A DNA stretch of 32,000 bases, taken from positions 13,292 to 45,291 of the forward strand of contig JAZOOX010000022.1 of assembly GCA_045655245.1 (NCBI GenBank). The letters are read 5' to 3'. A program made the position numbers and the translations under genes. Of the stretch, positions 1 to 30,566 are shown piece by piece. The stretch comes from Clostridia bacterium. GTDB taxonomy: Bacteria > Bacillota > Clostridia > RGIG8785. The stretch's first letter is position 1. The number at the start of each line of letters is the position of its first letter. Under the pieces are notes generated by a model, which searched no databases, had not been told where the DNA came from, and saw only the letters and a list, made by a program, of their open reading frames with translations.

Positions 1-500
1 TCGAGCCTGATAAGTCTGCCCGTCCCTTAGCGACGATGCTGACCGCCAGCATGGACACCAACGATTTCTTTACCGAAGCACATCCCAAGCTTCGTCCTGT
101 AGAAAGCCCGACGGCGGGTGTCTTCTTATCGGGTACCTGCCAGGGTCCCAAGGATATTCCGGAAACGGTTTCCCAGGCGTCTGCCGCCGCTGCAAAGGTC
201 ATCGGCCTTTTGGTGAAAGACAAACTGACAGGAAACCCCTGTATTGCAAGTTCCAATGAGCAAATGTGTAACGGATGCTCCTCCTGCGAACGGGTTTGCC
301 CCTACGGTGCTATCACCTACGCAGACAAAGAGTTCCGTATGCCTGATCGTACCACTTTGGTACGCCGCGTAGCCCAAGTCAATCCTGCGGTCTGCCAGGG
401 TTGCGGTGCTTGTACCGTAGCCTGCCCCTCGGGTGCGATGGATTTGCGTGGCTTTGCAAGTAATCAGATTATGGCGGAGGTGGATGCAATATGCAAGTAA
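1..500 (+). CDS. HdrA-like FAD/Fe-S oxidoreductase, C-terminal part (5' end is upstream of the window)
   Basis: The frame is open from nt 3 to the stop at 498-500. HPKLRPVESPTAGVFLSGTCQGPKDIPETVSQASAAAAK matches the conserved HdrA C-terminal FAD-domain motif. Two 4Fe-4S motifs follow: CNGCSSCERVCP and CQGCGACTVACP. Confidence 0.75.
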   Translation, partial: EPDKSARPLATMLTASMDTNDFFTEAHPKLRPVESPTAGVFLSGTCQGPKDIPETVSQASAAAAKVIGLLVKDKLTGNPCIASSNEQMCNGCSSCERVCPYGAITYADKEFRMPDRTTLVRRVAQVNPAVCQGCGACTVACPSGAMDLRGFASNQIMAEVDAICK

Positions 501-925
501 ACGGATACAAACCTTTGATCGTTGCCTTTTGTTGCAACTGGTGTTCCTATGCAGGTGCCGATCTGGCGGGAAACAACCGTCTGAACTATCCTGCAGATGT
601 TAAAATCATCCGCGTTCCCTGTTCCTGCCGTGTCAACCCCATGTTCATCCTCCGTGCGTTCCAGCGCGGTGCCGACGGGGTTATCAACTGTGGTTGCCAC
701 CCCGGTGACTGCCACTACACCTCGGGGAACTACTACACCCGCCGTCGTATGGCTCTGCTCTTCTCGATGCTGGATTATCTGGGCATCGAACGGGAGCGCA
801 CCCGTGTTGAATGGGTCTCTGCGGCAGAAGGTGCTAAGTTCGCCGCTACGATGAACGATTTTGCCGAGAAAGTAGCCGCTCTGGGCGAGAATAAACGATT
901 GGAGGATTTACGATGCAAAAAGTAA
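491..925 (+). CDS. mvhD: MvhD/FlpD (FlxD)-like [2Fe-2S] electron-transfer subunit
   Basis: FCCNWCSYAGADLAG, IRVPCSCRVNP and GADGVINCGCHPGDCHY are the FlpD/MvhD signature. GGAGG at 477-481 precedes ATG 491. The start overlaps the upstream stop by 10 nt. Confidence 0.85.
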   Translation: MQVNGYKPLIVAFCCNWCSYAGADLAGNNRLNYPADVKIIRVPCSCRVNPMFILRAFQRGADGVINCGCHPGDCHYTSGNYYTRRRMALLFSMLDYLGIERERTRVEWVSAAEGAKFAATMNDFAEKVAALGENKRLEDLRCKK

Positions 926-1902
926 GCCGTGACGCGCTGGTTGAAAAAGCGGTCGCAATGCTTCGTGACGACAAGGTTTGCGCAGTCCTCGGTTGGCGGA
1001 AAGGTGCTTTTGACTACGACGTCACTCCTTCCCTCTTCACCGATGCCGATGATTTGGAAAACAACTTTGTTTGGAACGATTTTTGCGGCGCAAACCTCTC
1101 AAAGTATCTTGTAGCAAAAACCCGCAAGGCAGAAGGAAAGATTCTGGTTTTCTTAAAGCCCTGCGACACCTACAGTTTTAACCAACTGTTAACCGAACAT
1201 CGCTTTGACCGGGAAAAGGTCTATGCCGTCGGCGTTCCCTGCAACGGCATGGCAGACATCCGCAAGATCAAAGACCTTTGCGGCGAAGGCATTGCCTCCA
1301 TCACCTGTGACGGTGACGGTCTTTCGGTCGAAACCTTATACGACGGTAATAAGACCCTGGCCCTTGCCGATGTACTGGCAGAACGTTGCATCTCCTGCAA
1401 GAGCAAGAAGCACGTTGCCTTTGACGAGTTGTTGGGCGAAACGGGTGAAGTTACCGAATCCAACCGTTTTGACGAAGTAGCACGTTTGGAAAAGATGTCC
1501 GCAGACGAGCGGTTTGACTTCTGGCAAAACGAGCTCTCTCGTTGCATCCGTTGCAACGCCTGCCGTGACGTCTGCCCCGCCTGTACCTGTGAAAAGTGCG
1601 TCTTTGACAATCCCGCATCGGGAGTCGAAAACAAGGCGGCGGCAAACAGTTTTGAAGAAAAGCTTTTCCACGTCATTCGTGCATTCCATGTTGCAGGTCG
1701 CTGTACCGACTGCGGCGAATGCTCCCGCGTTTGCCCTCAACAGATCCCCCTGCACCTGTTAAATCGCAAGTTCATCCGTGATATTGACTCCTTCTATGGG
1801 GAATATCAGGCGGGTGCTGAAGTAGGCTCCCGTGCGCCGCTGGTGAACTACACCGAGGACGATTTAGAGCCGTCCGAAGTATTTGAAGGGAGGGGCGAAT
1901 GA
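913..1902 (+). CDS. Fe-S protein of the HydB/AsrA type (FlxC/FlxB-like), 2x[4Fe-4S]
   Basis: Contains ILVFLKPCD plus CIRCNACRDVCPACTCEKC and CTDCGECSRVCP. GGAGG at 901-905 precedes the ATG. The start overlaps the mvhD stop by 13 nt. It is paralogous to the next ORF. Confidence 0.6.
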   Translation: MQKVSRDALVEKAVAMLRDDKVCAVLGWRKGAFDYDVTPSLFTDADDLENNFVWNDFCGANLSKYLVAKTRKAEGKILVFLKPCDTYSFNQLLTEHRFDREKVYAVGVPCNGMADIRKIKDLCGEGIASITCDGDGLSVETLYDGNKTLALADVLAERCISCKSKKHVAFDELLGETGEVTESNRFDEVARLEKMSADERFDFWQNELSRCIRCNACRDVCPACTCEKCVFDNPASGVENKAAANSFEEKLFHVIRAFHVAGRCTDCGECSRVCPQQIPLHLLNRKFIRDIDSFYGEYQAGAEVGSRAPLVNYTEDDLEPSEVFEGRGE

Positions 1903-2930
1903 TGCGTAAGTGTGAATTATCAGCAATGGATGCCCTGTTTGCCAAGATTGCAGCAGACGCTACCCTTTATCTCCCTGTAGACAATGAAACGGGCAAGGCT
2001 TCCTTCCAGAAGTGGGAAGCAGGCAAGGTGTGGAGCGATGCGCTGACCACCGTAAAAAGCCCCAAAGAGTTCTTCTTCCCCCAGATGGAGGACCTGATGG
2101 CATTTAAAACTGCAGGGAAAGCCATCGAACTGATTGATACCCGCTCCGAATCGGAAGATTTTGTAGTCTTTGGTGTCCGTGCTTGCGACGCCAAGAGTCT
2201 GGACGTTTTGGATCTGGTCTTTTTGACCGAGCCAAGAGACAGTTACTACGCCAACCGTCGGGAACATGGTACGGTCGTCACCTTGGCTTGTACCCGCCCT
2301 GCCGAGACCTGCTTCTGTCAGACCTTCGGGATTGACGCAGCAGACCCCCAAGGCGACCTGTCCCTCTGGAAAACCGAAACCGAAGTTTATTTCAAAGCCA
2401 ACACCCCCAAAGGTGAAGCACTGTTGAAGAAATTAGAAGGGCTGACCATTGAAGCGGATGACTCTGCTGTTTTGGAACAGAAAGAACAGATTCGTCAAGT
2501 ACTGAGCAAACTGCCCTTAAAGGACCTGACCACCGACGGGTTTGGTGGCGGAAAGACCGAAGCGCTCTTTGACCGTCCCGAATGGAAGGCCTTGTCCGAA
2601 TCCTGCCTGGGTTGCGGCACCTGTACTTTTGTCTGCCCCACCTGCCAGTGCTACGACATCAAGGACTTTAACACGGGTAACGGGGTTGTACGGTTCCGTT
2701 GCTGGGATTCTTGCATGTACTCCGACTTTACCAAGATGGCACACGGTAACAACCGCCTGACCCAGACCGAACGGTTCCGTCAGCGGTTTATGCACAAACT
2801 GGTCTACTTCCCCGAAAACAACGACGGAATGTTCAGTTGCGTCGGTTGCGGTCGCTGTCTGGCATCCTGTCCGATCTCGATGAATATTGCCAAAGTAATG
2901 AAGACGCTGGGAGGAAACGAAAATGAATAA
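1899..2930 (+). CDS. Fe-S protein, sulfhydrogenase beta / anaerobic sulfite reductase A-like (FlxB/FlxC-like)
   Basis: Contains FVVFGVRACDAKSLDVLDLVF plus CLGCGTCTFVCPTCQCYD and CVGCGRCLASCP, the typical AsrA/HydB layout. An ATGA start/stop overlap links it to the upstream gene. Confidence 0.65.
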   Translation: MMRKCELSAMDALFAKIAADATLYLPVDNETGKASFQKWEAGKVWSDALTTVKSPKEFFFPQMEDLMAFKTAGKAIELIDTRSESEDFVVFGVRACDAKSLDVLDLVFLTEPRDSYYANRREHGTVVTLACTRPAETCFCQTFGIDAADPQGDLSLWKTETEVYFKANTPKGEALLKKLEGLTIEADDSAVLEQKEQIRQVLSKLPLKDLTTDGFGGGKTEALFDRPEWKALSESCLGCGTCTFVCPTCQCYDIKDFNTGNGVVRFRCWDSCMYSDFTKMAHGNNRLTQTERFRQRFMHKLVYFPENNDGMFSCVGCGRCLASCPISMNIAKVMKTLGGNENE

Positions 2931-3756
2931 CATCCAAGACCCGTTGATGCCCCATATCGGCGTGATTACCGATGTCCGCATTGACACCCCCGATATCAAG
3001 ACCTTCCGCGTGGTTACCCCCGACGGAAAAAAGGCCTTTGACCATCGCCCCGGTCAGTGCGCCATGCTCTCCATCCCCGGCGTGGGCGAGGCGATGTTCT
3101 CCATCACCTCCTCCCCCACCAACGAGGAGTTTATGGAGTTCTCGATTAAAAAGTGCGGTTGCGTCACCGACTGGCTCCACCAAGCGGAAGTCGGTCAACA
3201 GTTGACCATCCGCGGACCTTACGGCAACCCCTTCCCCGTAGACACCGAGTTTGCGGGAAAGAATATGCTCTTTATCGCCGGCGGTGTCGGTCTTGCACCC
3301 CTCCGCTCGGTCATCAACTACTGCCGTCACTACCGCGACCGTTATGGTTCCATTGACATTGTATACGGTTCCCGCAGCAAGGACGATTTGCTGGACTATC
3401 AGGAAATCATCGACGAGTGGGCAACCGACAGCGGTGTGAACGTTCACCTGACCATCGACAACCCCCAGGAGGGCTGGGACGGTCATGTAGGGTTTGTTCC
3501 CAGTTATGTCAAAGAACTGGGCTTTTCCACTGACAAGACCGCCGTTCTTTGCGGTCCGCCCATTATGATTAAGTTCACTTTAGAAGGGTTGCTGGAGCTG
3601 GGCTTTGACAAGACCCAGGTTTACACCACCCTGGAACTGAAGATGAAATGCGGCATCGGCAAGTGCGGTCGTTGCAATGTCGGTTCCAAGTACGTCTGCA
3701 AAGACGGTCCTGTTTTCCGTTTTGACGAGCTGGACGAGTTGCCCGACGAGTATTGA
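2923..3756 (+). CDS. FAD/NAD(P)H-binding oxidoreductase with C-terminal [2Fe-2S] (HydG/AsrB/PyrK-like, FlxA-like)
   Basis: Shows the ferredoxin-reductase fold (RPGQCAMLSIPGVGEAMFSI, MLFIAGGVGLAPLRS) and a C-terminal CGIGKCGRCNVG...CKDGPVF cluster motif. The start overlaps the upstream gene by 8 nt. Confidence 0.75.
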   Translation: MNNIQDPLMPHIGVITDVRIDTPDIKTFRVVTPDGKKAFDHRPGQCAMLSIPGVGEAMFSITSSPTNEEFMEFSIKKCGCVTDWLHQAEVGQQLTIRGPYGNPFPVDTEFAGKNMLFIAGGVGLAPLRSVINYCRHYRDRYGSIDIVYGSRSKDDLLDYQEIIDEWATDSGVNVHLTIDNPQEGWDGHVGFVPSYVKELGFSTDKTAVLCGPPIMIKFTLEGLLELGFDKTQVYTTLELKMKCGIGKCGRCNVGSKYVCKDGPVFRFDELDELPDEY

Positions 3757-3774
3757 TGAAAAGGAGATAAGACT

Positions 3775-4449
3775 ATGGAAAATATGGTAAACATTTTTCT
3801 GTTCGGAAAGAAATACCAAGTGCCCGAAAATTTGACCATTATGCGGGCAATGGAGTATGCGGGATACCAGTTGGTTCGCGGTTGCGGTTGCCGTAACGGC
3901 TTCTGCGGCGCCTGTGCCACCATCTACCGCATCCACGGTCAGCAGGAGTTAAAGTCCTGCCTGGCTTGTCAGACCAAGGTTGAAGAGGGGATGTACATTG
4001 CGACCTTGCCCTTCTTCCCGTTGGTCAAACAGGTGTACGATGTCAACACGGTCCGTCCCACCGACGCGATCATGATGCAGTTGTACCCCGAAATTTATGC
4101 TTGTATCGGTTGCAATGCTTGCACCAAGAGCTGTACCCAGGAACTGAACGTTATGCAGTACATTGCATACGCTCAGCGAGGGGATTTTGAGAAATGCGCC
4201 GAAGAGTCTTTTGACTGTGTTATGTGTGGCGTTTGCTCCTCTCGTTGCCCTGCAGGGATTTCCCATCCTCAGGTTGCCATGCTGGCTCGCCGCTTAAACG
4301 GCAAGTACCTGGCACCCAAGTCTGCTCACGTCAGCGACCGTGTACAGGAAATCAAGGACGGTACCTTTACCGACCTGATTGAAGCACTGATGCAAAAACC
4401 CATCGAGGAAATCAAAGAACTCTACAACAACCGAGATATCGAGAAATAA
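3775..4449 (+). CDS. succinate dehydrogenase/fumarate reductase iron-sulfur subunit-like protein
   Basis: The N-terminal 2Fe-2S motif is CRNGFCGACA...C. It is followed by CIGCNACTKSC and CVMCGVCSSRCP, arranged as in SdhB/FrdB. AAGGAG sits 8 nt upstream of the ATG. Confidence 0.7.
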   Translation: MENMVNIFLFGKKYQVPENLTIMRAMEYAGYQLVRGCGCRNGFCGACATIYRIHGQQELKSCLACQTKVEEGMYIATLPFFPLVKQVYDVNTVRPTDAIMMQLYPEIYACIGCNACTKSCTQELNVMQYIAYAQRGDFEKCAEESFDCVMCGVCSSRCPAGISHPQVAMLARRLNGKYLAPKSAHVSDRVQEIKDGTFTDLIEALMQKPIEEIKELYNNRDIEK

Positions 4450-4462
4450 GGAGGGAAATGCC

Positions 4463-6058
4463 ATGTATTCTGAACAGTTTCAAGAATCCTTAAAGAAGGT
4501 TGAAGCCGCTCGCGAGGCAAACATCGCATTAGAGCCCGCACGTATGACGGCACAACAGAAAGAAGACTTATTGGCGGAGTACCATCCCGACTATAAGCAA
4601 GGCGAGTTTGACACCTTAAAAATCGGCCCCAACGCAGGCGAAAAAGTCCCCGTTGAACTGGCTAAAATGTTACAGGCACACAGCCGCATCAAGGCATCGG
4701 ATGTAGACCTGACCACCCCCGACTATGACGTTGATGTACTGATCATCGGCGGTGGCGGTGCAGGCGCTTCGGCGGCAATCGAAGCTCACGAAGCAGGCGC
4801 CAACGTTATGATTGTTACCAAGCTCCGTATCGGTGATGCCAACACCATGATGGCAGAAGGCGGTATTCAGGCGGCCGATAAACCCAACGACTCCCCCGCC
4901 ACCCACTTTGTAGATGCTTTCGGCGGCGGTCACTATGCCGCAAAGCGGGAACTCTTGTCCAAACTGGTTTGCGACGCTCCCGAAGCCATTCTGTGGCTGA
5001 ACGAACTGGGTGTCGAGTTTGACAAAGACGCTGACGGTACGATGGTTACCACCCATGGCGGCGGTACTTCCCGCAAGCGGATGCATGCGGCGAAGGACTA
5101 CTCGGGCGCAGAGATTATGCGTACCCTCCGTGACGAAGTATTGAACCGCAGGATTCCTGTTGTTGACTTTACCGCAGCAATTGAGCTGATTTTGGACGAC
5201 CAAGGCAAGGCCGCAGGTGCCGTCCTGATGAATATGGAGACCCACGAGCTGTTGGTTGCTCGTGCCAAGACCGTTATCATCGCTACCGGCGGTGCAGGTC
5301 GTATGCACTATCAAGGCTTCCCCACCTCCAACCACTACGGCGCAACTGCCGACGGTCTGGTACTGGGTTACCGTGTGGGTGCAAAGTTACTGTACGCCGA
5401 AACTTTACAGTATCATCCCACCGGTGCCGCATTCCCCGAGCAGATTTTCGGTGCACTGGTAACCGAAAAGGTCCGTTCTTTGGGCGCTAAACTGATCAAC
5501 GTCAACGGCGAAGTCTTCATGCACCCCTTAGAGACCCGTGACGTTTCCGCCGCATCCATCATCCGCGAGTGCTCCACCCGCGAAAACGGTGTCAACACCG
5601 GCAGTGGCTACGGTGTATGGTTAGACACCCCCATGATTGAAAAAATCGGCGGTGAAGGCACCATCGAGCGCCGCATCCCCGCAATGATGCGTATGTTTGA
5701 AAAGTACGGCATCGACATCCGCAAAGAACCCATCCTGGTCTACCCCACCCTGCACTACCAAAACGGCGGCTTAGACATCACTGCCGACTGTATGACCACC
5801 AACGTTGAAAACCTCTTTGTTGCAGGCGAAGCCGTTGGCGGTATCCACGGCAGAAACCGTCTGATGGGTAACTCTTTGTTAGACATCATCGTATTCGGTC
5901 GCAGTGCAGGTCAGAACGCCGCCGCAAAGGCAAAGGAAACCACCGTTGGAACTCTGACCTTAGACCATATTGAAAAGTTTGAAAACGAAATCGCCGCAGC
6001 CAAGATTGACACCGATTTGGTCTCTCCCAAACTGTTGCCCGATTATCGCAACAAATAA
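4463..6058 (+). CDS. soluble fumarate reductase/succinate dehydrogenase flavoprotein-like FAD protein (FAD_binding_2 family)
   Basis: Carries the dinucleotide fold DVLIIGGGGAGASAAIEA and the motifs ATGGAGRMH, LQYHPTG, TEKVRS, YPTLHYQNGG and GRNRLMGNSLLDIIVFGR. These align to E. coli FrdA motifs. AAGGAGG precedes the ATG. Confidence 0.75.
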   Translation: MYSEQFQESLKKVEAAREANIALEPARMTAQQKEDLLAEYHPDYKQGEFDTLKIGPNAGEKVPVELAKMLQAHSRIKASDVDLTTPDYDVDVLIIGGGGAGASAAIEAHEAGANVMIVTKLRIGDANTMMAEGGIQAADKPNDSPATHFVDAFGGGHYAAKRELLSKLVCDAPEAILWLNELGVEFDKDADGTMVTTHGGGTSRKRMHAAKDYSGAEIMRTLRDEVLNRRIPVVDFTAAIELILDDQGKAAGAVLMNMETHELLVARAKTVIIATGGAGRMHYQGFPTSNHYGATADGLVLGYRVGAKLLYAETLQYHPTGAAFPEQIFGALVTEKVRSLGAKLINVNGEVFMHPLETRDVSAASIIRECSTRENGVNTGSGYGVWLDTPMIEKIGGEGTIERRIPAMMRMFEKYGIDIRKEPILVYPTLHYQNGGLDITADCMTTNVENLFVAGEAVGGIHGRNRLMGNSLLDIIVFGRSAGQNAAAKAKETTVGTLTLDHIEKFENEIAAAKIDTDLVSPKLLPDYRNK

Positions 6059-7412: not shown

Positions 7413-7934
7413 ATGGGATTCTTTACACTGGCAAAAGACCGTTACTCGGTACGGAAATTCAAACCCGAACATCTATCCAAGGAAGAGCTTGACACGATCA
7501 TAAAAGCAGGGATGGTGGCGCCTACGGGTTGCAACTTCCAGGCCTTTCGGATTTTGGTCATCAATGATGATGTGTCTGCGCCCAAGTTGGCTAAATGCAC
7601 CGACAGCCACTTTAACGCCCCTGCGGCGATGGTCGTCTGCTATCACAAAAACGAGTGTTGGTATCGCAAAAAATACGACGGCGAACCTTGCGGTGTTTTG
7701 GATGCCGCGATCGTGGGCACTCATTTAATGCTCCAAGCCCACGAAATCGGAGTGGGCAGTACCTGGGTGATGAGTTTTGACCCCGCCGCCTTACGCCGTG
7801 CCTACAACATCCCCGATGAATTAGAACCTGTAGTACTTTTGGTCATGGGACATCCTGCCGAGGATGCCGCTCCTGCACCTCAGCACGATGTATTTCGTCC
7901 CGTGGAGGATTTGGTTTATTACGACACCTTTTGA
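7413..7934 (+). CDS. nitroreductase family protein
   Basis: RYSVRKFKPEHLSKEELDTIIKAGMVAPTGCNFQAFRILV is a typical N-terminus of the FMN nitroreductase family. The length of 173 aa fits. Confidence 0.8.
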   Translation: MGFFTLAKDRYSVRKFKPEHLSKEELDTIIKAGMVAPTGCNFQAFRILVINDDVSAPKLAKCTDSHFNAPAAMVVCYHKNECWYRKKYDGEPCGVLDAAIVGTHLMLQAHEIGVGSTWVMSFDPAALRRAYNIPDELEPVVLLVMGHPAEDAAPAPQHDVFRPVEDLVYYDTF

Positions 7935-7949
7935 TTTCAATAAGTAATG

Positions 7950-7979
7950 GAAAAAGCACCCAAAACGGGTGCTTTTTTA
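7950..7979. terminator. bidirectional rho-independent terminator between the nitroreductase gene and glmS
   Basis: A5-GCACCC-aaaac-GGGTGC-T6. The hairpin is flanked by an A-run on one side and a T-run on the other, between convergent genes. Confidence 0.8.
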
Positions 7980-8013
7980 CATCTGAATTCAGTTTTAACA
8001 GATCCTATAGGGA

Positions 8014-9762
8014 TTATTCTACAGTAACTGACTTTGCCAGGTTGCGGGGTTTGTCGATGTCGCAACCCTTCTCTTTCGCCACATAATAGGCAAACAACTG
8101 AAGCAGGGTTACAGCAGGCAACGACGCAAATTCGTCGGGTGTGGTCGGAATTGTCCAGACCCAATCTGCTACATCAGACAGGTCGCATCCTTCCTGGGTA
8201 ACGGCCAGTACCTTTGCCCCGCGGGACTTCACTTCACGGATGTTAGCAACCATCTTGGGCAGGAGTTCCTTTTGGGTACAGAGCGCAACCACGGGCGTCC
8301 CGTCTTCAATCAAGGAGATGGTGCCGTGCTTTAACTCCCCTGCGCCATAGGCTTCGGAATGGATGTACGAGATTTCTTTAAGCTTTAACGAGCCTTCCAT
8401 CGCCAAGGCATAGTCGCAGCCACGACCGATATAAAAGATGCTGGCAGCGTGAGCAAAGGCTTTGGAAAGGGATTTTACCTCGTCCCCTTTTTCAAGCACC
8501 TTTGCAACTGTTTCGGGAAGGGGAGACAGTACATCGGTCTCCACCTTTGCCAACGCCAATGCCATACGATAAATGGCCATTAACTGAGCGGAATAGGCTT
8601 TGGTGGTAGCAACGGCAATTTCAGGTCCTGCCGAGATATAAAATACATCGTCCGATTCCCGTGCAATGGTAGAACCCACCACGTTGACAATACCTAAGAC
8701 CCGTGCGCCCAAGCGCTTTGCCTCCCGCAGGGCGGCAAGGGTATCGGCTGTTTCACCGGACTGGCTGATAACAACTACCAGCGTGTTTTCGTCCAGCACG
8801 GGGTTGCGGTAACGGTACTCGGATGCGATATCCACAAAAACGGGAATCCGAGCCAGTTTTTCGATGACGTACTTGCCCACCATTCCAACGTGGTAAGCAG
8901 AGCCACAAGCTACGATATGCACCGCAGAGGGCAATTTGTCAAAATGAAAACTGCCATTGTGCAGAGTACGCTTTAAAACACCAGGTTCCTCGTGCATTTC
9001 CTTTTCCATAAAGTGGGCGTACCCACCCATTTCCGCCGCATCGGTGTCCCAATCGACGTTTTGTTGCGGTTTTGCAATCGGCTGACCATCGGCGTTGAAA
9101 AATTGTGCCGCAGTTTCGGTCAAGACTGCCAGTTCCCCGTCTTCCATCAAATAGACTTTACGGGTGTAAGGAAGCAATGCAGGGATGTCGGAGGCGAGGT
9201 AGAAACCATTCTCTCCCGCACCGACTACCAGAGGACTGTCCTGACGGACGGCAATGACACGATCGGGATAATTGCGGTCCAAAACGCCCAAAGCGTACGA
9301 GCCGGAAAGGCGCGCTACCGTTTTGCGTACAGAAACCATCGGGTCGGCATCGGCATAGCGGTCTAAGAGCTGAGCAATAACCTCGGTATCCGTTTCGGAA
9401 GCAAAGACTGCGCCCGATTCTGTCAGTTCACGACGCAATTCGGCATCGTTTTCGATAATTCCGTTATGCACTACCGCAAAACGGCCCGAAGGACTTAAAT
9501 GAGGATGGGCATTGGCATCAGAAGGAGCGCCGTGGGTTGCCCATCGGGTATGCCCGATACCAACCGTCCCTGAAAGGGGAGTTTCTTCCAGCCGTTCTTT
9601 TAACACACTTAAGCGGCCTTTGGCTTTAACCGCCAAAAGTCCTTCTTTGGACAGGGTGGCAACCCCTGCCGAATCGTAACCGCGATACTCCAAACGAGAA
9701 AGTCCGTCCAGTAAGAAAGGGAGCGCAAGCTCCTGTCCGATATATCCTACAATTCCACACAT
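8014..9762 (-). CDS. glmS: glutamine--fructose-6-phosphate aminotransferase
   Basis: Starts with the MCGIVGYIG Ntn nucleophile and has two SIS domains (VVISQSGETADT). It ends with the canonical NLAKSVTVE C-terminus. Confidence 0.95.
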   Translation of the reverse strand: MCGIVGYIGQELALPFLLDGLSRLEYRGYDSAGVATLSKEGLLAVKAKGRLSVLKERLEETPLSGTVGIGHTRWATHGAPSDANAHPHLSPSGRFAVVHNGIIENDAELRRELTESGAVFASETDTEVIAQLLDRYADADPMVSVRKTVARLSGSYALGVLDRNYPDRVIAVRQDSPLVVGAGENGFYLASDIPALLPYTRKVYLMEDGELAVLTETAAQFFNADGQPIAKPQQNVDWDTDAAEMGGYAHFMEKEMHEEPGVLKRTLHNGSFHFDKLPSAVHIVACGSAYHVGMVGKYVIEKLARIPVFVDIASEYRYRNPVLDENTLVVVISQSGETADTLAALREAKRLGARVLGIVNVVGSTIARESDDVFYISAGPEIAVATTKAYSAQLMAIYRMALALAKVETDVLSPLPETVAKVLEKGDEVKSLSKAFAHAASIFYIGRGCDYALAMEGSLKLKEISYIHSEAYGAGELKHGTISLIEDGTPVVALCTQKELLPKMVANIREVKSRGAKVLAVTQEGCDLSDVADWVWTIPTTPDEFASLPAVTLLQLFAYYVAKEKGCDIDKPRNLAKSVTVE

Positions 9763-9763
9763 A

Positions 9764-11449
9764 TTAATTCAACCTCGCTTCAATCATTTTAGTTAGGTAA
9801 TCTGCTTTTTTAGTAATCAGGGCATGATTCTCTCCTTCAATCATTACCCGCACACAAGGCTCGGTACCCGAGGGGCGCACCAGCACACGACCGCGGTCGG
9901 CCAGTTCCTCTTCTACACGAGCGATTTCTTCTTGGATAACGGGGTCGGAGAGACACTCCTTTTTCTTGGTGTTTGCCACCTTGGCGTTTATAATCACCTG
10001 GGGCATAGGAGTAAACCCGTCTGCCAGCTCGGAGAGCTTTTTACCGCTGCGTCGGAGTACGGTCAACAACTGCAACGCAGTGCAAAGTCCGTCCCCCGTA
10101 GTATTACTATCTAAGAAAATGATATGTCCCGACTGTTCCCCGCCGATACAATAGCCCGAACGGACCATTTCCTCTAACACATAGCGGTCGCCCACATCGG
10201 TACGGACAATGTTGATGCCCCGCTCCTTTGCGGCGAGAATCAGACCCAGATTGGTCATGACCGTGGTTACCAGAGTGTCTTTTTTCAACAAGCCACGGGA
10301 TTTTAAGTCGTCGGCACAGATGAACATAATCTTATCACCATCCACCAGACGACCGGTTTCGTCTACTGCCAGTACACGGTCAGCATCGCCGTCAAAGGTC
10401 AACCCCAAGTCAACGTCAATTTTACGGACATATTCGCAAAATTCCCGAGGATGGGTGGAACCGCAGTTGGCGTGGATGTTGGTACCGTTGGGGTGATTAT
10501 GTACCGCATAGACATCGGCACCCAGGTCGACCAGCACCCGCACGGTGGTTTCATACGATGCACCGTTGGCACAGTCCACGGCGATACGCATTCCGCGAAG
10601 GTCGCCTGTAATCGTGCTTTTAGCGTGGTCAATATACTCCTGCGCTGCAGTCTTTAAGACTTCGGTATGGCCGACGGCATCCCCTGTAGGCAGTACCGGG
10701 TCTTCCGATTCATCCAGTACGATCCGTTCGATACGATGTTCCAATCGGTCAGACAGTTTATAGCCGTTGGCATTAAAAATCTTGATACCGTTAAACTCGG
10801 CGCTGTTGTGGGAAGCAGAAATCACAACGCCTGCATCGGCACCGTGCTTACGGGTCAAATATGCTACGGCAGGAGTGGGTATAACACCCAACTGCACTAC
10901 CTTTGCCCCGGCAGAGCAAAGTCCCGCAATCAACGCACCTTCCAGCATATCCCCCGAAAGACGGGAGTCCTTGCCAATAAACACTGTAGGTTTGTGAGAC
11001 AGTTCGCGGGTCAGGACATACGCACAGGCACGACCGATTGCCAGCGCCATTTCGCAAGTGAGTTCGGAATTGGCAACGCCCCGCACTCCATCGGTGCCAA
11101 AGAGGCGTCCCACTTTGGAGGAGTCCCCGGCAAAAAGAGCGTCTAAGCGCTTGGCATGAAACCCTGCGCGGTTCTTTTGCTCGGATTGCAAAAACTTGCG
11201 GTGGTCCCCGTCATAGTTATTGCGGATTTCCTCGGCACAGTCGTCGTAACGAACGCGAATGTCAGTCAGTCCCAAAAGAAAATCAGCTGAAACGCGAAAG
11301 AGCAACGACATCTGACGGATGGAATCGTGGTCAGGCTGACTGGATCCCGACTCCCACATGGCAACGGTGGAGCGGGAAACACCCAGTTTTTCGGCCAATC
11401 GTTGTTGGCTTAAGTTGGCTTCTTTACGAAGCAGTTTCATTGGATTCAT
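9764..11449 (-). CDS. glmM: phosphoglucosamine mutase with an in-frame N-terminal XRE-family HTH domain (561 aa)
   Basis: ATG 11449 is preceded by AGAGGTG. Residues 1-63 (LRKEANLSQQRLAEKLGVSRSTVAMWESGSSQPDHDSIRQMSLLFRVSADFLLGLTD) form a Cro/C1-type HTH. From residue 113 the sequence is canonical GlmM: GRLFGTDGVRGVAN and the active site SASHNSAEFNGIK. An internal GTG at 11113 would give a standard 449-aa GlmM. There is no stop codon between the two parts. Confidence 0.8.
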   Translation of the reverse strand: MNPMKLLRKEANLSQQRLAEKLGVSRSTVAMWESGSSQPDHDSIRQMSLLFRVSADFLLGLTDIRVRYDDCAEEIRNNYDGDHRKFLQSEQKNRAGFHAKRLDALFAGDSSKVGRLFGTDGVRGVANSELTCEMALAIGRACAYVLTRELSHKPTVFIGKDSRLSGDMLEGALIAGLCSAGAKVVQLGVIPTPAVAYLTRKHGADAGVVISASHNSAEFNGIKIFNANGYKLSDRLEHRIERIVLDESEDPVLPTGDAVGHTEVLKTAAQEYIDHAKSTITGDLRGMRIAVDCANGASYETTVRVLVDLGADVYAVHNHPNGTNIHANCGSTHPREFCEYVRKIDVDLGLTFDGDADRVLAVDETGRLVDGDKIMFICADDLKSRGLLKKDTLVTTVMTNLGLILAAKERGINIVRTDVGDRYVLEEMVRSGYCIGGEQSGHIIFLDSNTTGDGLCTALQLLTVLRRSGKKLSELADGFTPMPQVIINAKVANTKKKECLSDPVIQEEIARVEEELADRGRVLVRPSGTEPCVRVMIEGENHALITKKADYLTKMIEARLN

Positions 11450-11467
11450 TTTGTCACCTCTTCTTTC

Positions 11468-11497
11468 ATTATAGGTTTTGTTGCCCAAAAGAGTCAA
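11468..11497 (-). promoter_or_regulatory. sigma-70 promoter of the HTH-glmM-glmS operon
   Basis: On the minus strand, TTGACT (11497-11492) is followed by N18 and TATAAT (11473-11468). This leaves only about 15 nt of leader before the RBS and ATG. Confidence 0.65.
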
Positions 11498-11531
11498 CGG
11501 ATTCTTGACATTTTCGGTCAAGTTTGTTGAC
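11493..11531 (-). promoter_or_regulatory. two operator-like inverted repeats, GTCAA-N5-TTGAC and GTCAA-N7-TTGAC
   Basis: Perfect 5-bp half-sites lie at 11517-11531 (N5 spacer) and 11493-11509 (N7 spacer). Each is preceded by the direct repeat AATGTCAA. The promoter-proximal half-site is the -35 hexamer itself. Confidence 0.5.
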
Positions 11532-11544
11532 ATTATTATTTCCC

Positions 11545-11573
11545 AAAAAAAGAAAGGGTCGGAATCGACCCTT
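11545..11573 (-). terminator. rho-independent terminator after the LCP gene
   Basis: On the minus strand, GGGTCG-attc-CGACCC is followed by TTTCTTTTTTT. Confidence 0.75.
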
Positions 11574-12509
11574 TTATTCGTTTTCGGGAATTTGTACGGG
11601 ATCATCCGAGAAGTAAATTGCACGGATGTCTGCCATTTCCTGAATATGTTTTTCGCCGCGGACAACATAGGAAACACCGCCGATGTCCTGTGCCGTTGAG
11701 GGCAACATAAACATATACACACGGTCGGTGGAGATTTTGGGTGCCAGCATAGCGTACTTGGTGATCTGCGCCATAGAAAGGCTGGTGTCCACTGCTTCGG
11801 TCAGCACTTTTGCAATATTGTCCACCTTCCCCAGGTAGCGCAGGTTGACCTTTTGGTCGATGAAGCATTTGATGAAGTATTGTTGTGCCGAAACGCGGCC
11901 CAGGTCACCGTTGACATAACCGCTTCTGAACCGGACAAACTGTTCAGACTTTTCGCCGTTTAAAACCTGGCGGCCTGCGTCAATATGGATATGCAAGTTT
12001 TGAATGGGATCGTCATAGTGCATCCCCGGTTGGGGTACGTCTACTTCAACCCCCCCTAAAATGTCAATAACCTCGCGGAAGCTGGAAGTATCCAGCTTCA
12101 CGAAATGGTGAATGGGCAAGCCCGTAATTTCACGGACGGCACGGATTAATATTTCTTCTTCCGAGTCCACCTTTCCCTGTTTGAACAGCGAAACGCCGAC
12201 CCCGTAAGCTTCGTTGATTTTACGATAGCGACCCTCGATTAACAAGCGGGTATCCCGAGGGATGGAGATGGTGGAAAGGTCCCCGTTATCGGTATTTAAA
12301 CTGGCTAAAATAATGGTGTCAGTCAAGGAAGCAACCCTGTCCTTCCCAAAGACCAGGACGTTGACGCGGTTGGACTCGATGGGGTCGCCGCCGATCATCA
12401 CATTGCCGACCTGCGGGGTCAAATGCAACCCCAAAAGGATACCGCCGCCAATGGCCAGAAACACGCACATTGCCATTGCTATTGTCTTGAAAAATACACG
12501 CATATTCAT
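11574..12509 (-). CDS. LCP (LytR-CpsA-Psr) family cell-envelope polymer transferase
   Basis: Has an N-terminal TM helix followed by NVLVFGKDRVASLTDTIILASLNTDNGDLSTISIPRDT, the LCP core motif. Confidence 0.85.
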   Translation of the reverse strand: MNMRVFFKTIAMAMCVFLAIGGGILLGLHLTPQVGNVMIGGDPIESNRVNVLVFGKDRVASLTDTIILASLNTDNGDLSTISIPRDTRLLIEGRYRKINEAYGVGVSLFKQGKVDSEEEILIRAVREITGLPIHHFVKLDTSSFREVIDILGGVEVDVPQPGMHYDDPIQNLHIHIDAGRQVLNGEKSEQFVRFRSGYVNGDLGRVSAQQYFIKCFIDQKVNLRYLGKVDNIAKVLTEAVDTSLSMAQITKYAMLAPKISTDRVYMFMLPSTAQDIGGVSYVVRGEKHIQEMADIRAIYFSDDPVQIPENE

Positions 12510-13723: not shown

Positions 13724-13845
13724 AAGATGTCTTTGGGGCGGGGTGCAATTCCCCACCGGCAGTAACAGCCTGCGAGCCGCTTTTGCGGTTGACTCGGTGT
13801 GATTCCGAGGCCGACGGTACAGTCCGGATGAGAAAAGACGGCAGG
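13724..13845 (+). promoter_or_regulatory. FMN riboswitch (RFN element)
   Basis: The conserved RFN core is present: GGGGCGGGGTGCAATTCCCCACCGGC.GTA...AGCC.GCGAGC...GGTTGACTCGGTGTGATTCCGAGGCCGACGGTACAGTCCGGATGAGA. P1 pairs GTCTTT with AAAGAC. Confidence 0.92.
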
Positions 13846-13854
13846 AGTGTTTGT

Positions 13855-13882
13855 GTCCGTCCCCCGTGGACGGACTTTTTTA
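13855..13882 (+). terminator. FMN-riboswitch expression-platform terminator
   Basis: GTCCGTCC-cccgt-GGACGGAC is followed by T6, immediately upstream of the ribU RBS (GGAGG at 13885-13889). Confidence 0.85.
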
Positions 13883-13895
13883 TTGGAGGCTTATA

Positions 13896-14486
13896 ATGAA
13901 AAACAAATCCCTGAACTTACTGGTCAAACTGGCAATGCTCTCGGCGGTGGCAATGGCACTGATGCTCTTTGAATTCCCTCTGCCATTTATCGCGCCGCCC
14001 TTTTACGAAATCGACCTCAGCGAGGTCCCTGTTCTGATTGGGGCGTTTGCATTCGGTCCTTGGGCGGGTGCCATCGTTGAAGGCGTAAAAATTCTTTTGA
14101 ACCTGCTGATTAACGGCACCGTTACCGCAGGGATTGGGGAGCTTTCCAACTTTGTTCTGGGTGTGGTCTTCGTCCTGCCTGCCGCCTGGGTCTATCAGAA
14201 AAACAAAACGAAAAAAGGTGCCCTGTACGGATTGCTTACGGGGACGGTCCTGCTGTTGGTACTGGGTTGCTTCATTAACGCCTTTGTTATGCTCCCTGCT
14301 TACGGCAACGCCTTTGGAATGCCTATTTCCGCCTTTGTGGATATGGCAGCGCAGATTCATCCCTCCATTGACACGGTATTGGAATTCGTCCTCTTTTGCG
14401 TTTTGCCTTTTAATCTGATCAAGGCAGTGCTGGTCTCGGTCATTACCCTTTTGATTTACAAAAAACTTTCCCCCGTTCTCCATTGA
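13896..14486 (+). CDS. ribU: ECF-transporter S component for riboflavin (RibU-like)
   Basis: A 196-aa six-TM protein (FEFPLPFIAPPFYEIDLSEVPVLIGAFAFGPWAG) sitting directly behind an FMN riboswitch. ATG 13896 is 6 nt after GGAGG. Confidence 0.8.
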   Translation: MKNKSLNLLVKLAMLSAVAMALMLFEFPLPFIAPPFYEIDLSEVPVLIGAFAFGPWAGAIVEGVKILLNLLINGTVTAGIGELSNFVLGVVFVLPAAWVYQKNKTKKGALYGLLTGTVLLLVLGCFINAFVMLPAYGNAFGMPISAFVDMAAQIHPSIDTVLEFVLFCVLPFNLIKAVLVSVITLLIYKKLSPVLH

Positions 14487-24195: not shown

Positions 24196-25386
24196 TCAAT
24201 GGTGGAATAAGCGCATTCCGGTGAATGCCATAGTGATGCCGTTTTCGTTACAACAATTGATAACAACATCGTCACGGATGGAGCCGCCCGGCTCGGCAAT
24301 GTAGGAAACGCCGCTGCGGAGGGCGCGTTTGATGTTGTCATCAAAGGGGAAGAATGCATCCGAGCCTACTGAAACGCCGGTGATTCCGTCCAGGTAAGCG
24401 CGTTTTTCTTCACGGGTTAAAGGCGCGGGTTTGACCGAGAAGTAGTTTTCCCATACACCGTCTGCCAGTACTTCATCACAGTCGTCGGACAGATAAACGT
24501 CGATCACATTGTCACGGTCGGGACGACCCATGGTTTCCAAGAAGGGCAGAGCCAGTACCTGGGGATGCTGACGGAGATGCCACAAGTCGGCTTTGTTGCC
24601 TGCCAGGCGGGTACAATGGATACGGGACTGCTGTCCTGCACCTACACCGATTGCCTGACCGTCAACAGCGTAGCAGACCGAGTTGGATTGGGTATACTTT
24701 AAGGTGATCAGCGCAATAATCAGGTCACGGATTGCCGATTCGGGCAGGTCCTTCTTCTCGGTGACGATGTTCGTCAGCAGGTCACGGTCGATCTTAAACT
24801 CGTTACGACCTTGTTCGAAGGTGATGCCGTAAACCTGTTTCCGTTCGATAGGAGCGGGTTTGTAGTTTTCGTCAATCTGAACGATGTTATAGTTGCCCTT
24901 GCGCTTAGACTTCAAGATTTCCAGGGCTTCGGGCTGGTAACCGGGAGCGATAACGCCGTCGGATACTTCGCGTTTGATCAGCAATGCGGTAGTAACGTCG
25001 CAAACGTGGGGCAGGGCGATCCAGTCACCGAAGGAGGACATTCTGTCAGTACCCCGGGCACGGGCGTAGGCACAAGCCAGGGGGGATTCGTCTAAGCCTT
25101 CGATGTCGTCTACAAAACAAGCTTTTTTCAACGCATCGGACAGGGGCAGACCAACCGCTGCAGAAGTGGGACTGACGTGCTTGAAAGAGGTGGCGCAGGG
25201 CAACCCCAGCGCTTCTTTGATCTCTTTCACCAGCTGCCAGCTGTTAAAAGCGTCCAAGAAGTTGATGAATCCGGGTTTACCGGAGAGGATGGTGATGGGC
25301 AGTTCCCCCTCCTCCATAAAGATGCGGGAGGGTTTTTGGTTGGGGTTACAACCGTATTTCAGTTCCAGTTCGTTCATTTTGGTCAC
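24196..25386 (-). CDS. purH: AICAR formyltransferase (stand-alone AICARFT domain of PurH)
   Basis: Contains LKYGCNPNQ, SFKHVSPTSAA, GVGAGQQSRIHC and EPGGSIRDD, and ends in MRLFHH. At 396 aa it has no MGS-like IMP cyclohydrolase domain. Confidence 0.9.
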   Translation of the reverse strand: MTKMNELELKYGCNPNQKPSRIFMEEGELPITILSGKPGFINFLDAFNSWQLVKEIKEALGLPCATSFKHVSPTSAAVGLPLSDALKKACFVDDIEGLDESPLACAYARARGTDRMSSFGDWIALPHVCDVTTALLIKREVSDGVIAPGYQPEALEILKSKRKGNYNIVQIDENYKPAPIERKQVYGITFEQGRNEFKIDRDLLTNIVTEKKDLPESAIRDLIIALITLKYTQSNSVCYAVDGQAIGVGAGQQSRIHCTRLAGNKADLWHLRQHPQVLALPFLETMGRPDRDNVIDVYLSDDCDEVLADGVWENYFSVKPAPLTREEKRAYLDGITGVSVGSDAFFPFDDNIKRALRSGVSYIAEPGGSIRDDVVINCCNENGITMAFTGMRLFHH

Positions 25387-25389
25387 CTC

Positions 25390-26109
25390 TTATTTGTTTT
25401 GGTTGATCATGCGATTTTCAATGGCGCCCGTCTCCAAATCAATATAACGGACATAAAGAGAGATGCGGTTGTTTTCATCGAGGGCGTTCCAAATGTCGGA
25501 GGTAAAGCCGTCGATGTCGTTGGGAATGGAAACCCGCTCCGGTTCACCGCAGAAGGTGGGGATGGGGTTGCCGTCGCAAACGTAAGTGTGGATCAAGTGA
25601 CCAACGCCGGGAATGGCTGCATAGTCGTAAGTAAAGCGATTGCAGGCAGAGCCTTCGGCATCGGCACTCTTTAAAATGCTCATCTGATACGAAACGTCGC
25701 CCTTGTCAAAGGTCAGCATACCGCTGATGCGAGGGGTGAAGTTGGGGGCATCAGGCTCGAACTCGCGGGACTTTAAGGCCTCGGAGAAGGAAAGACCTGC
25801 ATTGATGCCGTCAACCACCGTGTCGGTCTGGTCCCCGTTGGTGACGACCAGGTGGTTTTTCACCTTGCGGATGGGCGAGTAGATAATCAGGGACGGGTCC
25901 TCGACCTTTGAAGCATCAAAGGGGTGGATGATAACTTCTTCCCCGTTTTCCACAAAGATGCGGTTACGGCTGTTGGCGCTTCTGCCCATGATGAAATAGG
26001 CAGTTACGGCGTGCTTGCCGTCAGCGCTTTTGCCCAGCAGGACACCGCGACCGGGGTAGGAGTTGCCGCCGATAACTTCGGCAATGGAATCGATTGCGTA
26101 TACGTTCAT
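25390..26109 (-). CDS. purO: IMP cyclohydrolase, archaeal PurO-like
   Basis: A 239-aa protein sitting exactly between purN and the AICARFT gene. The YPGRGVLLGKS...AYFIMGRSANSRNR pattern fits the PurO family. This call rests on memory of the family plus operon position. Confidence 0.7.
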   Translation of the reverse strand: MNVYAIDSIAEVIGGNSYPGRGVLLGKSADGKHAVTAYFIMGRSANSRNRIFVENGEEVIIHPFDASKVEDPSLIIYSPIRKVKNHLVVTNGDQTDTVVDGINAGLSFSEALKSREFEPDAPNFTPRISGMLTFDKGDVSYQMSILKSADAEGSACNRFTYDYAAIPGVGHLIHTYVCDGNPIPTFCGEPERVSIPNDIDGFTSDIWNALDENNRISLYVRYIDLETGAIENRMINQNK

Positions 26110-30444: not shown

Positions 30445-30556
30445 AAAAAAGATAAGGGCAGTCCTATCCACAAAGGATAAGACTGCCCAGACGGTCGGCA
30501 TATAGGCTCTCTTTGCTCCCTTGTGGGTACTTCCACTCTTTCCGTCAGTCACAAAA
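30445..30556 (-). promoter_or_regulatory. ZTP (pfl-motif) riboswitch with overlapping intrinsic terminator
   Basis: The minus strand reads GUGACUGACGGAAAGAGUGGAAGUACCCACAAGGGAGC...GCCGACCGUCUGGGCAGUC. It contains the conserved UGACUGACGG and CCGACCGUCUGGGC elements of ZTP riboswitches. A terminator follows: GGGCAGTCCTATCC-acaaa-GGATAAGACTGCCC plus a T-run (30488-30445). The terminator's 5' arm reuses the GGGCAGUC of the aptamer. Confidence 0.88.
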
Positions 30557-30566
30557 AGACATTCAT

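Follow-up and report, generated by a model that had tools for sequence, protein, structure and literature searches.

The minus strand of a 32,000-nucleotide stretch of DNA from a Clostridia bacterium (GTDB lineage Bacteria; Bacillota; Clostridia; RGIG8785; NCBI GenBank assembly GCA_045655245.1, contig JAZOOX010000022.1, positions 13,292 to 45,291 of the forward strand), here called the window, encodes a protein in which a helix-turn-helix (HTH) DNA-binding domain of the Cro/C1 (XRE) type precedes the phosphoglucosamine mutase GlmM within a single open reading frame (ORF). The frame is open from the ATG at 11449-11447 to the stop codon TAA at 9766-9764, that is, over 561 codons, and is present in one piece, as described in an earlier note on this DNA that was made from the sequence alone. 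Upstream of the fusion gene lie a ribosome-binding site, a sigma-A type promoter and a nested palindrome, and downstream lies glmS, the gene for glucosamine-6-phosphate (GlcN-6-P) synthase (Table 1). The comparative analysis reported here leaves us almost certain that the fusion exists and is translated into a single chain, and suggests that this conserved fusion GlmM probably also controls its own glmM-glmS operon.

Table 1. Coordinates in the window of the fusion gene, its parts and the associated operon elements
Feature	Position	Strand	Basis
HTH-linker-GlmM fusion ORF, 561 amino acids (aa), stop codon included	9764..11449	-	open frame; Pfam HTH_3 + PGM_PMM_I-IV; architecture shared by protein clusters P0001-P0005 and locus L008
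Cro/C1 (XRE) helix-turn-helix, residues 1-63	11261..11449	-	HTH_3 E 1.2e-13; AlphaFold2 (AF2) model; Foldseek; dN/dS 0.03-0.10
Conserved 49-residue linker, residues 64-112, three predicted helices	11114..11260	-	indel-free alignment; low dN; two models
Apparently complete phosphoglucosamine mutase GlmM, residues 113-561	9764..11113	-	TIGR01455 571.6 bits; invariant or near-invariant loops; 7OJR alignment
Codon 113, GTG in the window, read as Val; putative former GlmM start position	11111..11113	-	codon comparison, eight copies
Ribosome-binding site GAGGTGA, 4 nt ahead of the ATG	11454..11460	-	invariant in all six aligned upstream regions
Sigma-A type promoter: TTGACT (11497-11492), 18 nt, TATAAT (11473-11468)	11468..11497	-	11/12 consensus match
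39-nt nested palindrome GTCAAC-AAA-CTTGAC-CGAAAAT-GTCAAG-AATCC-GTTGAC, candidate operator array	11493..11531	-	inverted repeats, conservation
Intrinsic terminator of the upstream LytR-CpsA-Psr (LCP) gene, insulating the operon	11553..11574	-	9-bp stem + T-tract; equivalent hairpin in relatives
glmS (GlcN-6-P synthase), 582 aa, begins MCGIVGY, co-transcribed with glmM	8014..9762	-	starts 1 nt past the glmM stop

The fusion gene, its parts and its relatives

Pfam analysis of the 561-aa protein identifies HTH_3 at residues 5-58 followed by PGM_PMM_I-IV at residues 115-550. By profile and motif conservation, the C-terminal part appears to be a complete enzyme with intact catalytic motifs, in agreement with the earlier note. 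The NCBIfam glmM equivalog model TIGR01455 is matched well above its cutoff of 447.55 bits, with residues 117-557 covering profile positions 1-441 of 442, and the four Pfam domains, PGM_PMM_I, II, III and IV, all exceed their gathering scores. Across 53 fused and unfused GlmMs, the S211-A-S213-H-N215 loop, DGDADR (353-358), GEQSGH (437-442) and RPSGTEP (525-531) are invariant or nearly so. Furthermore, the GlmM part aligns end to end with Bacillus subtilis GlmM (7OJR), including the catalytic phosphoserine loop (S213), the Mg-binding DGDADR motif, the sugar loop GEQSGH and the phosphate loop RPSGTEP.

The N-terminal domain conforms to the assignment in the earlier note as well: the HTH_3 (PF01381) match scores 51.3 bits against a gathering score of 23 and takes in profile positions 2-55 of 55, and the AF2 model of the N-terminal part alone, built from a slightly deeper alignment, shows the five-helix, repressor-type Cro/C1 fold with a predicted local distance difference test (pLDDT) score of 81-93. 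In a Foldseek comparison, this predicted model superimposes on the DNA-binding domains of P22 C2, SinR, ImmR and an arbitrium-phage repressor (9IAQ) with a root-mean-square deviation of 0.9-1.4 A over 55-66 columns. The closest relatives by sequence, with 55-62% identity over residues 1-60, are the N-termini of XRE-Peptidase_S24 repressors of approximately 200 aa and small XRE proteins of 105-125 aa, in which the dimer is made by a separate C-terminal part. The S24 peptidase domain (PF00717) is present in the nearest HTH relatives (loci L009, L014 and L015) and has no match in the window protein.

The region between the two domains, described in the earlier note as a polar linker, aligns without indels, contains many invariant residues, including the conserved motifs RYDDCAEEI, FLQ.EQK and GFHAKRLDALF, and is predicted in both AF2 models to form three helices (68-79, 83-92 and 97-106; moderate confidence, pLDDT 58-68), so that it does not look like a loose tether. 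No homologue of the linker was detected outside the clade in genome, metagenome and protein searches, and its model has no structural match in Foldseek. When residues 1-112 were compared, using HMMER, with 1.84 billion representative sequences, a set in which the fusion family is not a separate 50% representative, the best 150 matches were multi-HTH repeat proteins, whose summed scores dominate, and almost nothing matched the linker.

The fusion frame happens to remain open for 91 codons farther upstream (11450-11722), running across the promoter and the terminator into the 3' end of the LCP gene. We regard this open stretch as incidental and have rejected the 652-aa protein given in the ORF listing.

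A search that covered 5.8 billion proteins, with matches grouped as clusters at 90% identity, yielded five further clusters (P0001-P0005, with the corresponding DNA loci denoted L001-L005) of proteins of 561-566 aa that are 78-92% identical to the window protein and share its HTH_3 + PGM_PMM architecture; the next-best matches are ordinary 449-aa GlmMs, 73% identical over the GlmM part. A seventh copy (L008) comes from the metagenome-assembled genome 'Clostridia bacterium RGIG8785' from water deer colon, the only species representative that carries the fusion in a scan of one genome per GTDB species. The earlier note had proposed looking for the same architecture (HTH_3 + PGM_PMM_I-IV) in related genomes, and six other assemblies indeed carry an uninterrupted fusion, so that, with the window, seven independent assemblies contain the intact gene with an indel-free extension. 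In the relatives, the synteny with the window is retained, with an LCP-family gene upstream and glmS, a nitroreductase, an Asp-Al_Ex permease and a FAD (flavin adenine dinucleotide) oxidoreductase downstream. Two additional searches returned HTH sequences only: a scan of metagenome contigs with junction alignment, in which all 80 loci were HTH-only and none contained a GlmM motif, and a search with residues 1-112 that yielded 18 candidates of 65-190 aa, but could not return long fusions and missed even P0001-P0005. Thus, in the collections searched, the fusion is confined, with its seven intact copies, to a narrow uncultured gut lineage.

Pairwise Nei-Gojobori estimates for six genes put the ratio of nonsynonymous to synonymous substitution rates (dN/dS) at the value shown in Table 1 for the HTH and at 0.04-0.09 for the GlmM part; for the linker, dN is 0.035-0.20 with saturated synonymous sites, corresponding to a dN/dS of about 0.1 or less. 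By this measure, the HTH and the linker appear to be under the same strong purifying selection as GlmM. The first 112 codons contain neither an in-frame stop nor an indel, the other two frames hold 1-6 stops, the GC content overall and at third codon positions (GC3) is equal in the extension and in the enzyme part of the gene, and the mean column identity over residues 1-130 is 91% in six sequences. Given the low dN/dS, the saturation of synonymous sites, the open, indel-free frame, and the equal GC and GC3, the comparison indicates that the extension is translated in frame with GlmM and has been held by selection through a long divergence.

Could the fusion nevertheless be an artefact, in which a sequencing or assembly error, or the recent loss of a stop codon, merged a small XRE gene with glmM and left an extension that is untranslated or functionless? 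A short contig (L066:970-1695; ena:ERZ28594118 scaffold_46724) might be taken to capture the state before such a merger because it holds the HTH as a separate ORF that stops at 88 aa. However, this sequence is approximately 97% identical to L002 and L008 and differs by a 40-nt deletion in the linker, between GAAC microhomologies; as a result, the GlmM frame has no start codon left ahead of GRLFGTDG. We therefore rejected L066 as the ancestral, separate-gene state and treat this 1.7-kb singleton contig as a broken copy, either a dead allele or an assembly artefact. No separate ancestral XRE gene precedes glmM at the two unfused loci compared, L006 and L007, and seven assemblies from different samples keep the frame open despite saturated synonymous divergence, with dN/dS around 0.05. 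Taken together, these observations make the artefact explanation extremely improbable.

A different question is whether the gene yields one product or two. The earlier note pointed to residue 113, a GTG codon (11113-11111) with GGGGA 10 nt upstream, both of which are present, and suggested that a free 449-aa GlmM is produced from this codon alongside the fusion, with the ribosome starting both there and at the ATG at 11449. The position is suggestive: Val113 falls exactly where GlmM started ancestrally, being aligned with the initiator Met or Leu of unfused 449-aa GlmMs and with Met1 of B. subtilis GlmM 7OJR, and in both the window and L001 the GTG follows a purine-rich word (GGGGA or AGGTGA) by 10 nt. 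However, GTG is found in only two of the eight copies compared, namely these two, with GTT in L002, GTA in L003, and GTC in L004, L005, L008 and L066, which is synonymous drift of a valine codon rather than maintenance of a start, and the GGGGA is dictated by conserved Gly-Asp codons. In L004 and L008, there is no in-frame ATG, GTG or TTG between codons 65 and 121, so that, in these copies, a GlmM with the N-terminal GRLFGTDGVRG strand is obtainable only as part of the fusion, and the frameshifted L066 likewise offers no start from which GlmM could be made. Nor is an internal promoter predicted: the single promoter-like site in 9600-11700 is the one ahead of the ATG. The pattern at codon 113 is best described as that of a former GTG start that appears to have become a plain valine codon with a drifting third base, and initiation of a separate, free GlmM does not appear to be conserved; this strain in particular may show a low level of internal initiation, but we consider regular synthesis of two products improbable. 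With no conserved internal start, the enzyme would be made with the HTH attached, and the whole 561-aa chain is, on the best reading, the functional product.

The promoter region and the operon

The promoter that precedes the ATG is the only site of this kind detected between 9600 and 11700, and across the six aligned upstream regions its -10 box is invariant and the spacer between the -35 and -10 boxes unconserved. The ribosome-binding site starts 7 nt past the -10 box (window 11461-11473), so that the leader would be only about 12 nt long and the Shine-Dalgarno sequence would lie at the very 5' end of the mRNA; such a leader is unusually short for a glmS-encoding operon.

The palindrome contains four TTGAC half-sites, the last of which coincides with the -35 box. 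We propose that the element is best read as two adjacent candidate operators, O1 (GTCAA-N5-TTGAC, 11531-11517, centre at approximately -63) and O2 (GTCAA-N7-TTGAC, 11509-11493, centre at approximately -40), the downstream arm of O2 being the -35 hexamer itself; a distance of 23 bp, or about two helical turns, separates the two centres. Invariant columns make up 24 of 40 in the palindrome, 1 of 19 in the spacer between the -35 and -10 boxes, and 20 of 187 (10.7%) among four-fold degenerate sites, so that the binomial probability of at least 24 invariant palindrome columns at the neutral rate is 6e-14. The mean pairwise identity is 0.82 for the palindrome, against 0.39 for the spacer and 0.47 for four-fold degenerate sites. 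The DNA available for motif searches consisted of the 32 kb of this genome and the short contigs of the relatives. The strict palindrome pattern in L001-L005 is restricted to the promoters of the fusion genes and is absent from 60 other loci examined, including the unfused glmM promoters in L006 and L007; relaxed operator patterns occur across the rest of the window at chance frequency only and define no regulon. Conservation of the palindrome well exceeds that of neutral sites, and the element is found together with the fusion.

In L001-L003, the GATase and SIS domains of GlcN-6-P synthase are encoded at the position orthologous to that of glmS in the window. The glmS ribozyme (RF00234) was not found at the Rfam gathering score in the window or in L001-L007, nor at E<=5 in the region 7900-11750. 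The LCP gene in the window lies directly ahead of the fusion promoter; L001 (3159-4469) and L005 (1566-2846) contain, between the LCP gene and the fusion gene, an additional gene for a protein of 426-436 aa without a Pfam match, which is missing from the window.

Possible autoregulation and its alternatives

What could be the function of a repressor-type domain attached to an enzyme of amino sugar metabolism? We infer that the HTH binds the palindrome, that this binding results in repression and that the protein dimerises through its GlmM part. The scenario that we favour on balance is that of a bifunctional 'trigger enzyme' that autoregulates glmM-glmS via O1 and O2, with the repressor dimerised through GlmM. 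Under this scenario, a housekeeping GlmM would have received, at its N-terminus, a phage-repressor-type Cro/C1 HTH together with the structured 49-residue linker. Solved GlmMs are M-shaped dimers joined via domain 1 (PMC8573169), the very domain to which the N-terminal extension is attached, so that each enzyme dimer would carry two HTH heads and would take over the role played by S24 or helical C-terminal domains in the related repressors. The HTH heads would bind TTGAC half-sites about one helical turn apart within O1 and O2, upstream of and overlapping the -35 box, and occupancy of O2 would block the -35 box in competition with RNA polymerase, resulting in auto-repression of glmM-glmS. Auto-repression would set the supply of GlcN-6-P and glucosamine-1-phosphate (GlcN-1-P) for cell-wall synthesis in an operon in which glmS is free of the ribozyme and the leader appears too short for an RNA switch; the substrate, the product or the phosphorylation state of the enzyme might then modulate DNA binding.

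The components of this scenario are not equally strong. Autoregulation through the palindrome seems reasonably likely, and repression appears to be the more likely of the two possible signs of regulation, ahead of activation. Control of binding by amino-sugar phosphates or by the catalytic state is the weakest step and can be put forward only tentatively. Coupling to the active site is sterically conceivable, considering that the GRLFGTDGVRG strand, which presumably belongs to the active-site cleft in the phosphomannomutase/phosphoglucomutase (PMM/PGM) superfamily, follows right after the linker. The earlier note had suggested that the HTH makes glmM-glmS transcription respond to amino-sugar phosphate levels; an action on transcription has gained in plausibility with the conserved palindrome, which is located at the gene's own promoter and found only together with the fusion, and the response to the metabolites stays at the tentative level just stated. 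A more ambitious version, in which the fused GlmM is a protein-based feedback sensor of cell-wall precursor supply, the first transcription factor built on a phosphohexomutase, standing in functionally for the glmS ribozyme, is attractive, but we regard it as doubtful. On that view, phospho-Ser213, occupancy by GlcN-6-P, glucosamine-1,6-bisphosphate (GlcN-1,6-bisP) or GlcN-1-P, and closure of domain 4 near the GRLFGTDGVRG strand would gate the binding of the HTH to O1/O2, sequestration by the membrane-bound cyclic di-AMP (c-di-AMP) cyclase CdaA could gate binding likewise, and glmM-glmS transcription would track the amino-sugar phosphate flux without an RNA switch.

Several facts weigh against the autoregulatory scenario. 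The connection between the HTH and the palindrome is a co-occurrence in one narrow clade, represented by seven close sequences, so that another regulator could own the site, and all carriers of the fusion are metagenomic bins of uncultured organisms. In the AF2 models, the placement of the HTH and the linker on GlmM is of low confidence (pLDDT 35-68), the N-terminal 128 residues scoring 35-62 in the model of the whole protein, compared with about 90 for the GlmM body. The centres of the two sites would also suit classical activator positions. Finally, L007, the nearest unfused relative with a glmM-glmS operon, likewise lacks the glmS ribozyme; the fusion is thus not demonstrably a replacement of the ribozyme, and we dropped that proposal as a firm claim.

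Some of these facts fit an alternative that keeps the HTH as a DNA binder and assigns the palindrome to a different regulator, or has the fusion regulate genes other than its own operon, such as a broader cell-envelope regulon, or act as an activator. Centres at about -40 and -63 match the geometry of class II and class I activators, respectively, the searchable DNA was limited to the 32 kb and the relatives' short contigs, and comparable evidence from site positions led to the inference that RbkR is an activator (PMC5397151). Against this stand a promoter so close to the consensus (11/12) that no activator should be needed, a last half-site that is the -35 box itself, the restriction of the strict pattern to fusion promoters in all DNA available, and the chance-level frequency of relaxed patterns in the window, which together leave this alternative not very likely, although it is the most serious of the competitors. 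Another candidate function for the HTH is protein-protein docking, by which GlmM would be tethered to the cell-wall machinery, to CdaA or to some other partner. There is a precedent for a docking HTH in RodZ, the XRE-like HTH of which binds MreB. Strong purifying selection would suit any function, and GlmM is indeed known to bind and inhibit CdaA (PMC8573169, PMC6368335). However, the closest relatives of the domain, in sequence and in structure, are all bona fide DNA-binding repressor domains, and docking does not account for a palindrome that is conserved specifically in this clade and sits in the promoter of the gene itself, so we consider this explanation quite improbable.

The autoregulatory scenario is best evaluated against enzymes that are fused to DNA-binding domains and regulate their own pathways, namely BirA, NadR, PutA and RbkR (PMC5397151). 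Judging from its sequence, the protein resembles this class in that one chain unites a DNA-binding domain and a catalytically competent metabolic enzyme. NadR is nearest in form and RbkR is nearest in logic. NadR of Enterobacteria, which combines an HTH with nicotinamide mononucleotide (NMN) adenylyltransferase and ribosylnicotinamide kinase, similarly carries an N-terminal DNA-binding domain on active enzymes of the pathway that it represses (PMC5397151). It differs in that only PGM_PMM domains, and no NMN adenylyltransferase or kinase, follow the HTH in the fusion, which is accordingly an analogue of NadR and not a member of that family, and in that the corepressor logic of NadR is established, whereas that of the fusion is only inferred. 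The HTH of NadR is itself of the Cro/C1 type. RbkR of Archaea, a winged HTH joined to riboflavin kinase, likewise combines an essential enzyme with a DNA-binding domain where the usual riboswitch of the pathway is absent, recognizes palindromic, often tandem sites, has its own operon among its targets and was first predicted by comparative genomics (PMC5397151). However, RbkR represents a broad, ancient family with another type of HTH and another enzyme, whereas the fusion is limited to one narrow bacterial clade. The biotin ligase/repressor BirA and the proline dehydrogenase/repressor PutA are also bifunctional enzyme-repressors that act at the promoters of their own pathways (PMC5397151). 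Unlike the fusion, both are experimentally proven, and they employ a winged helix (BirA) or a ribbon-helix-helix (PutA) along with other enzymes. BirA must dimerise through its enzyme body to bind DNA, a dependence that we propose for the fusion too.

On the side of the HTH, the closest kin, the XRE-Peptidase_S24 (cI/LexA-like) repressors, ImmR, P22 C2 and SinR, are dimeric repressors of palindromic operators in which the HTH requires a separate dimerisation domain. The fusion cannot be counted among the XRE-Peptidase_S24 repressors: in place of their C-terminal dimerisation/cleavage domain, it has the unique linker and a whole metabolic enzyme. On the side of the enzyme, canonical GlmMs of Firmicutes (B. 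subtilis 7OJR, S. aureus 6GYZ, B. anthracis 3PDK) align over their full length and share the catalytic loops, and the pairing with glmS, as in L007, is the same in the fusion operon; the canonical proteins differ in having about 450 aa and no extra domain, and their known moonlighting activity is CdaA binding, not DNA binding (PMC8573169). The glmS ribozyme, GlmR and GlmY/GlmZ-RapZ, which control GlcN-6-P synthesis, solve the same problem, feedback control of glmS and of the amino-sugar phosphate supply (PMC6171935). None of these systems occurs here, and they are RNA-based or act on the GlmS protein or mRNA, whereas with the fusion the pathway's next enzyme would exert control at the level of transcription. 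The literature searched contains nothing relevant on an HTH-phosphoglucosamine mutase fusion, and no source names these proteins, in line with the impression in the earlier note that such a fusion had not been described; we conclude that this fusion of an enzyme with a probable regulator is genuine, conserved and hitherto undescribed, and that a candidate operator is conserved together with it.

Self-regulating enzymes with a DNA-binding domain of their own are few, and each is instructive as to how metabolism is wired to transcription. GlmM stands at the entry to UDP-N-acetylglucosamine (UDP-GlcNAc) and peptidoglycan synthesis, where control is unusually varied (glmS ribozyme, GlmY/GlmZ, GlmR, GlmM-CdaA), and GlmM as a transcription factor, if real, would add a new, purely protein-based solution. 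More generally, a phage-type repressor head might be re-usable by exchanging its dimerisation domain for a dimeric enzyme. With one protein and one 39-bp site, the system is compact and testable, although the restriction to a narrow uncultured gut lineage calls for recombinant protein and heterologous reporters.

Other features of the window

Outside the glmM-glmS region, the window contains two riboswitches. A flavin mononucleotide (FMN) riboswitch at 13725-13843 on the plus strand (115 bits) is located directly upstream of the gene for an energy-coupling factor (ECF) transporter S component (13851-14486), presumably a riboflavin importer of the RibU type; L001 contains this riboswitch-gene pair as well. 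A ZMP/ZTP riboswitch at 30478-30562 on the minus strand (64.6 bits) heads a long minus-strand purine-biosynthesis cluster, the members of which include formylglycinamidine ribonucleotide (FGAM) synthase, glycinamide ribonucleotide synthetase (GARS), a protein with the transformylase domain (AICARFT) for 5-aminoimidazole-4-carboxamide ribonucleotide (AICAR), and formate-tetrahydrofolate ligase. At 24199-26109 (minus strand), a 396-aa protein is matched by the PurH profile over its AICAR-transformylase part only (profile positions 76-311), and adjoining this protein is a separate 239-aa IMP_cyclohyd (PF07826) protein, which we take to be of the archaeal PurO type; the last steps of purine synthesis thus appear, from these profile matches, to be split between two proteins. 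At the other end of the window (36-6058, plus strand), a cluster of iron-sulfur and flavin oxidoreductase genes encodes an MvhD/FlpD-type subunit (491-925), several 4Fe-4S proteins and a 531-aa FAD_binding_2 protein, and resembles heterodisulfide-reductase or electron-bifurcating modules.

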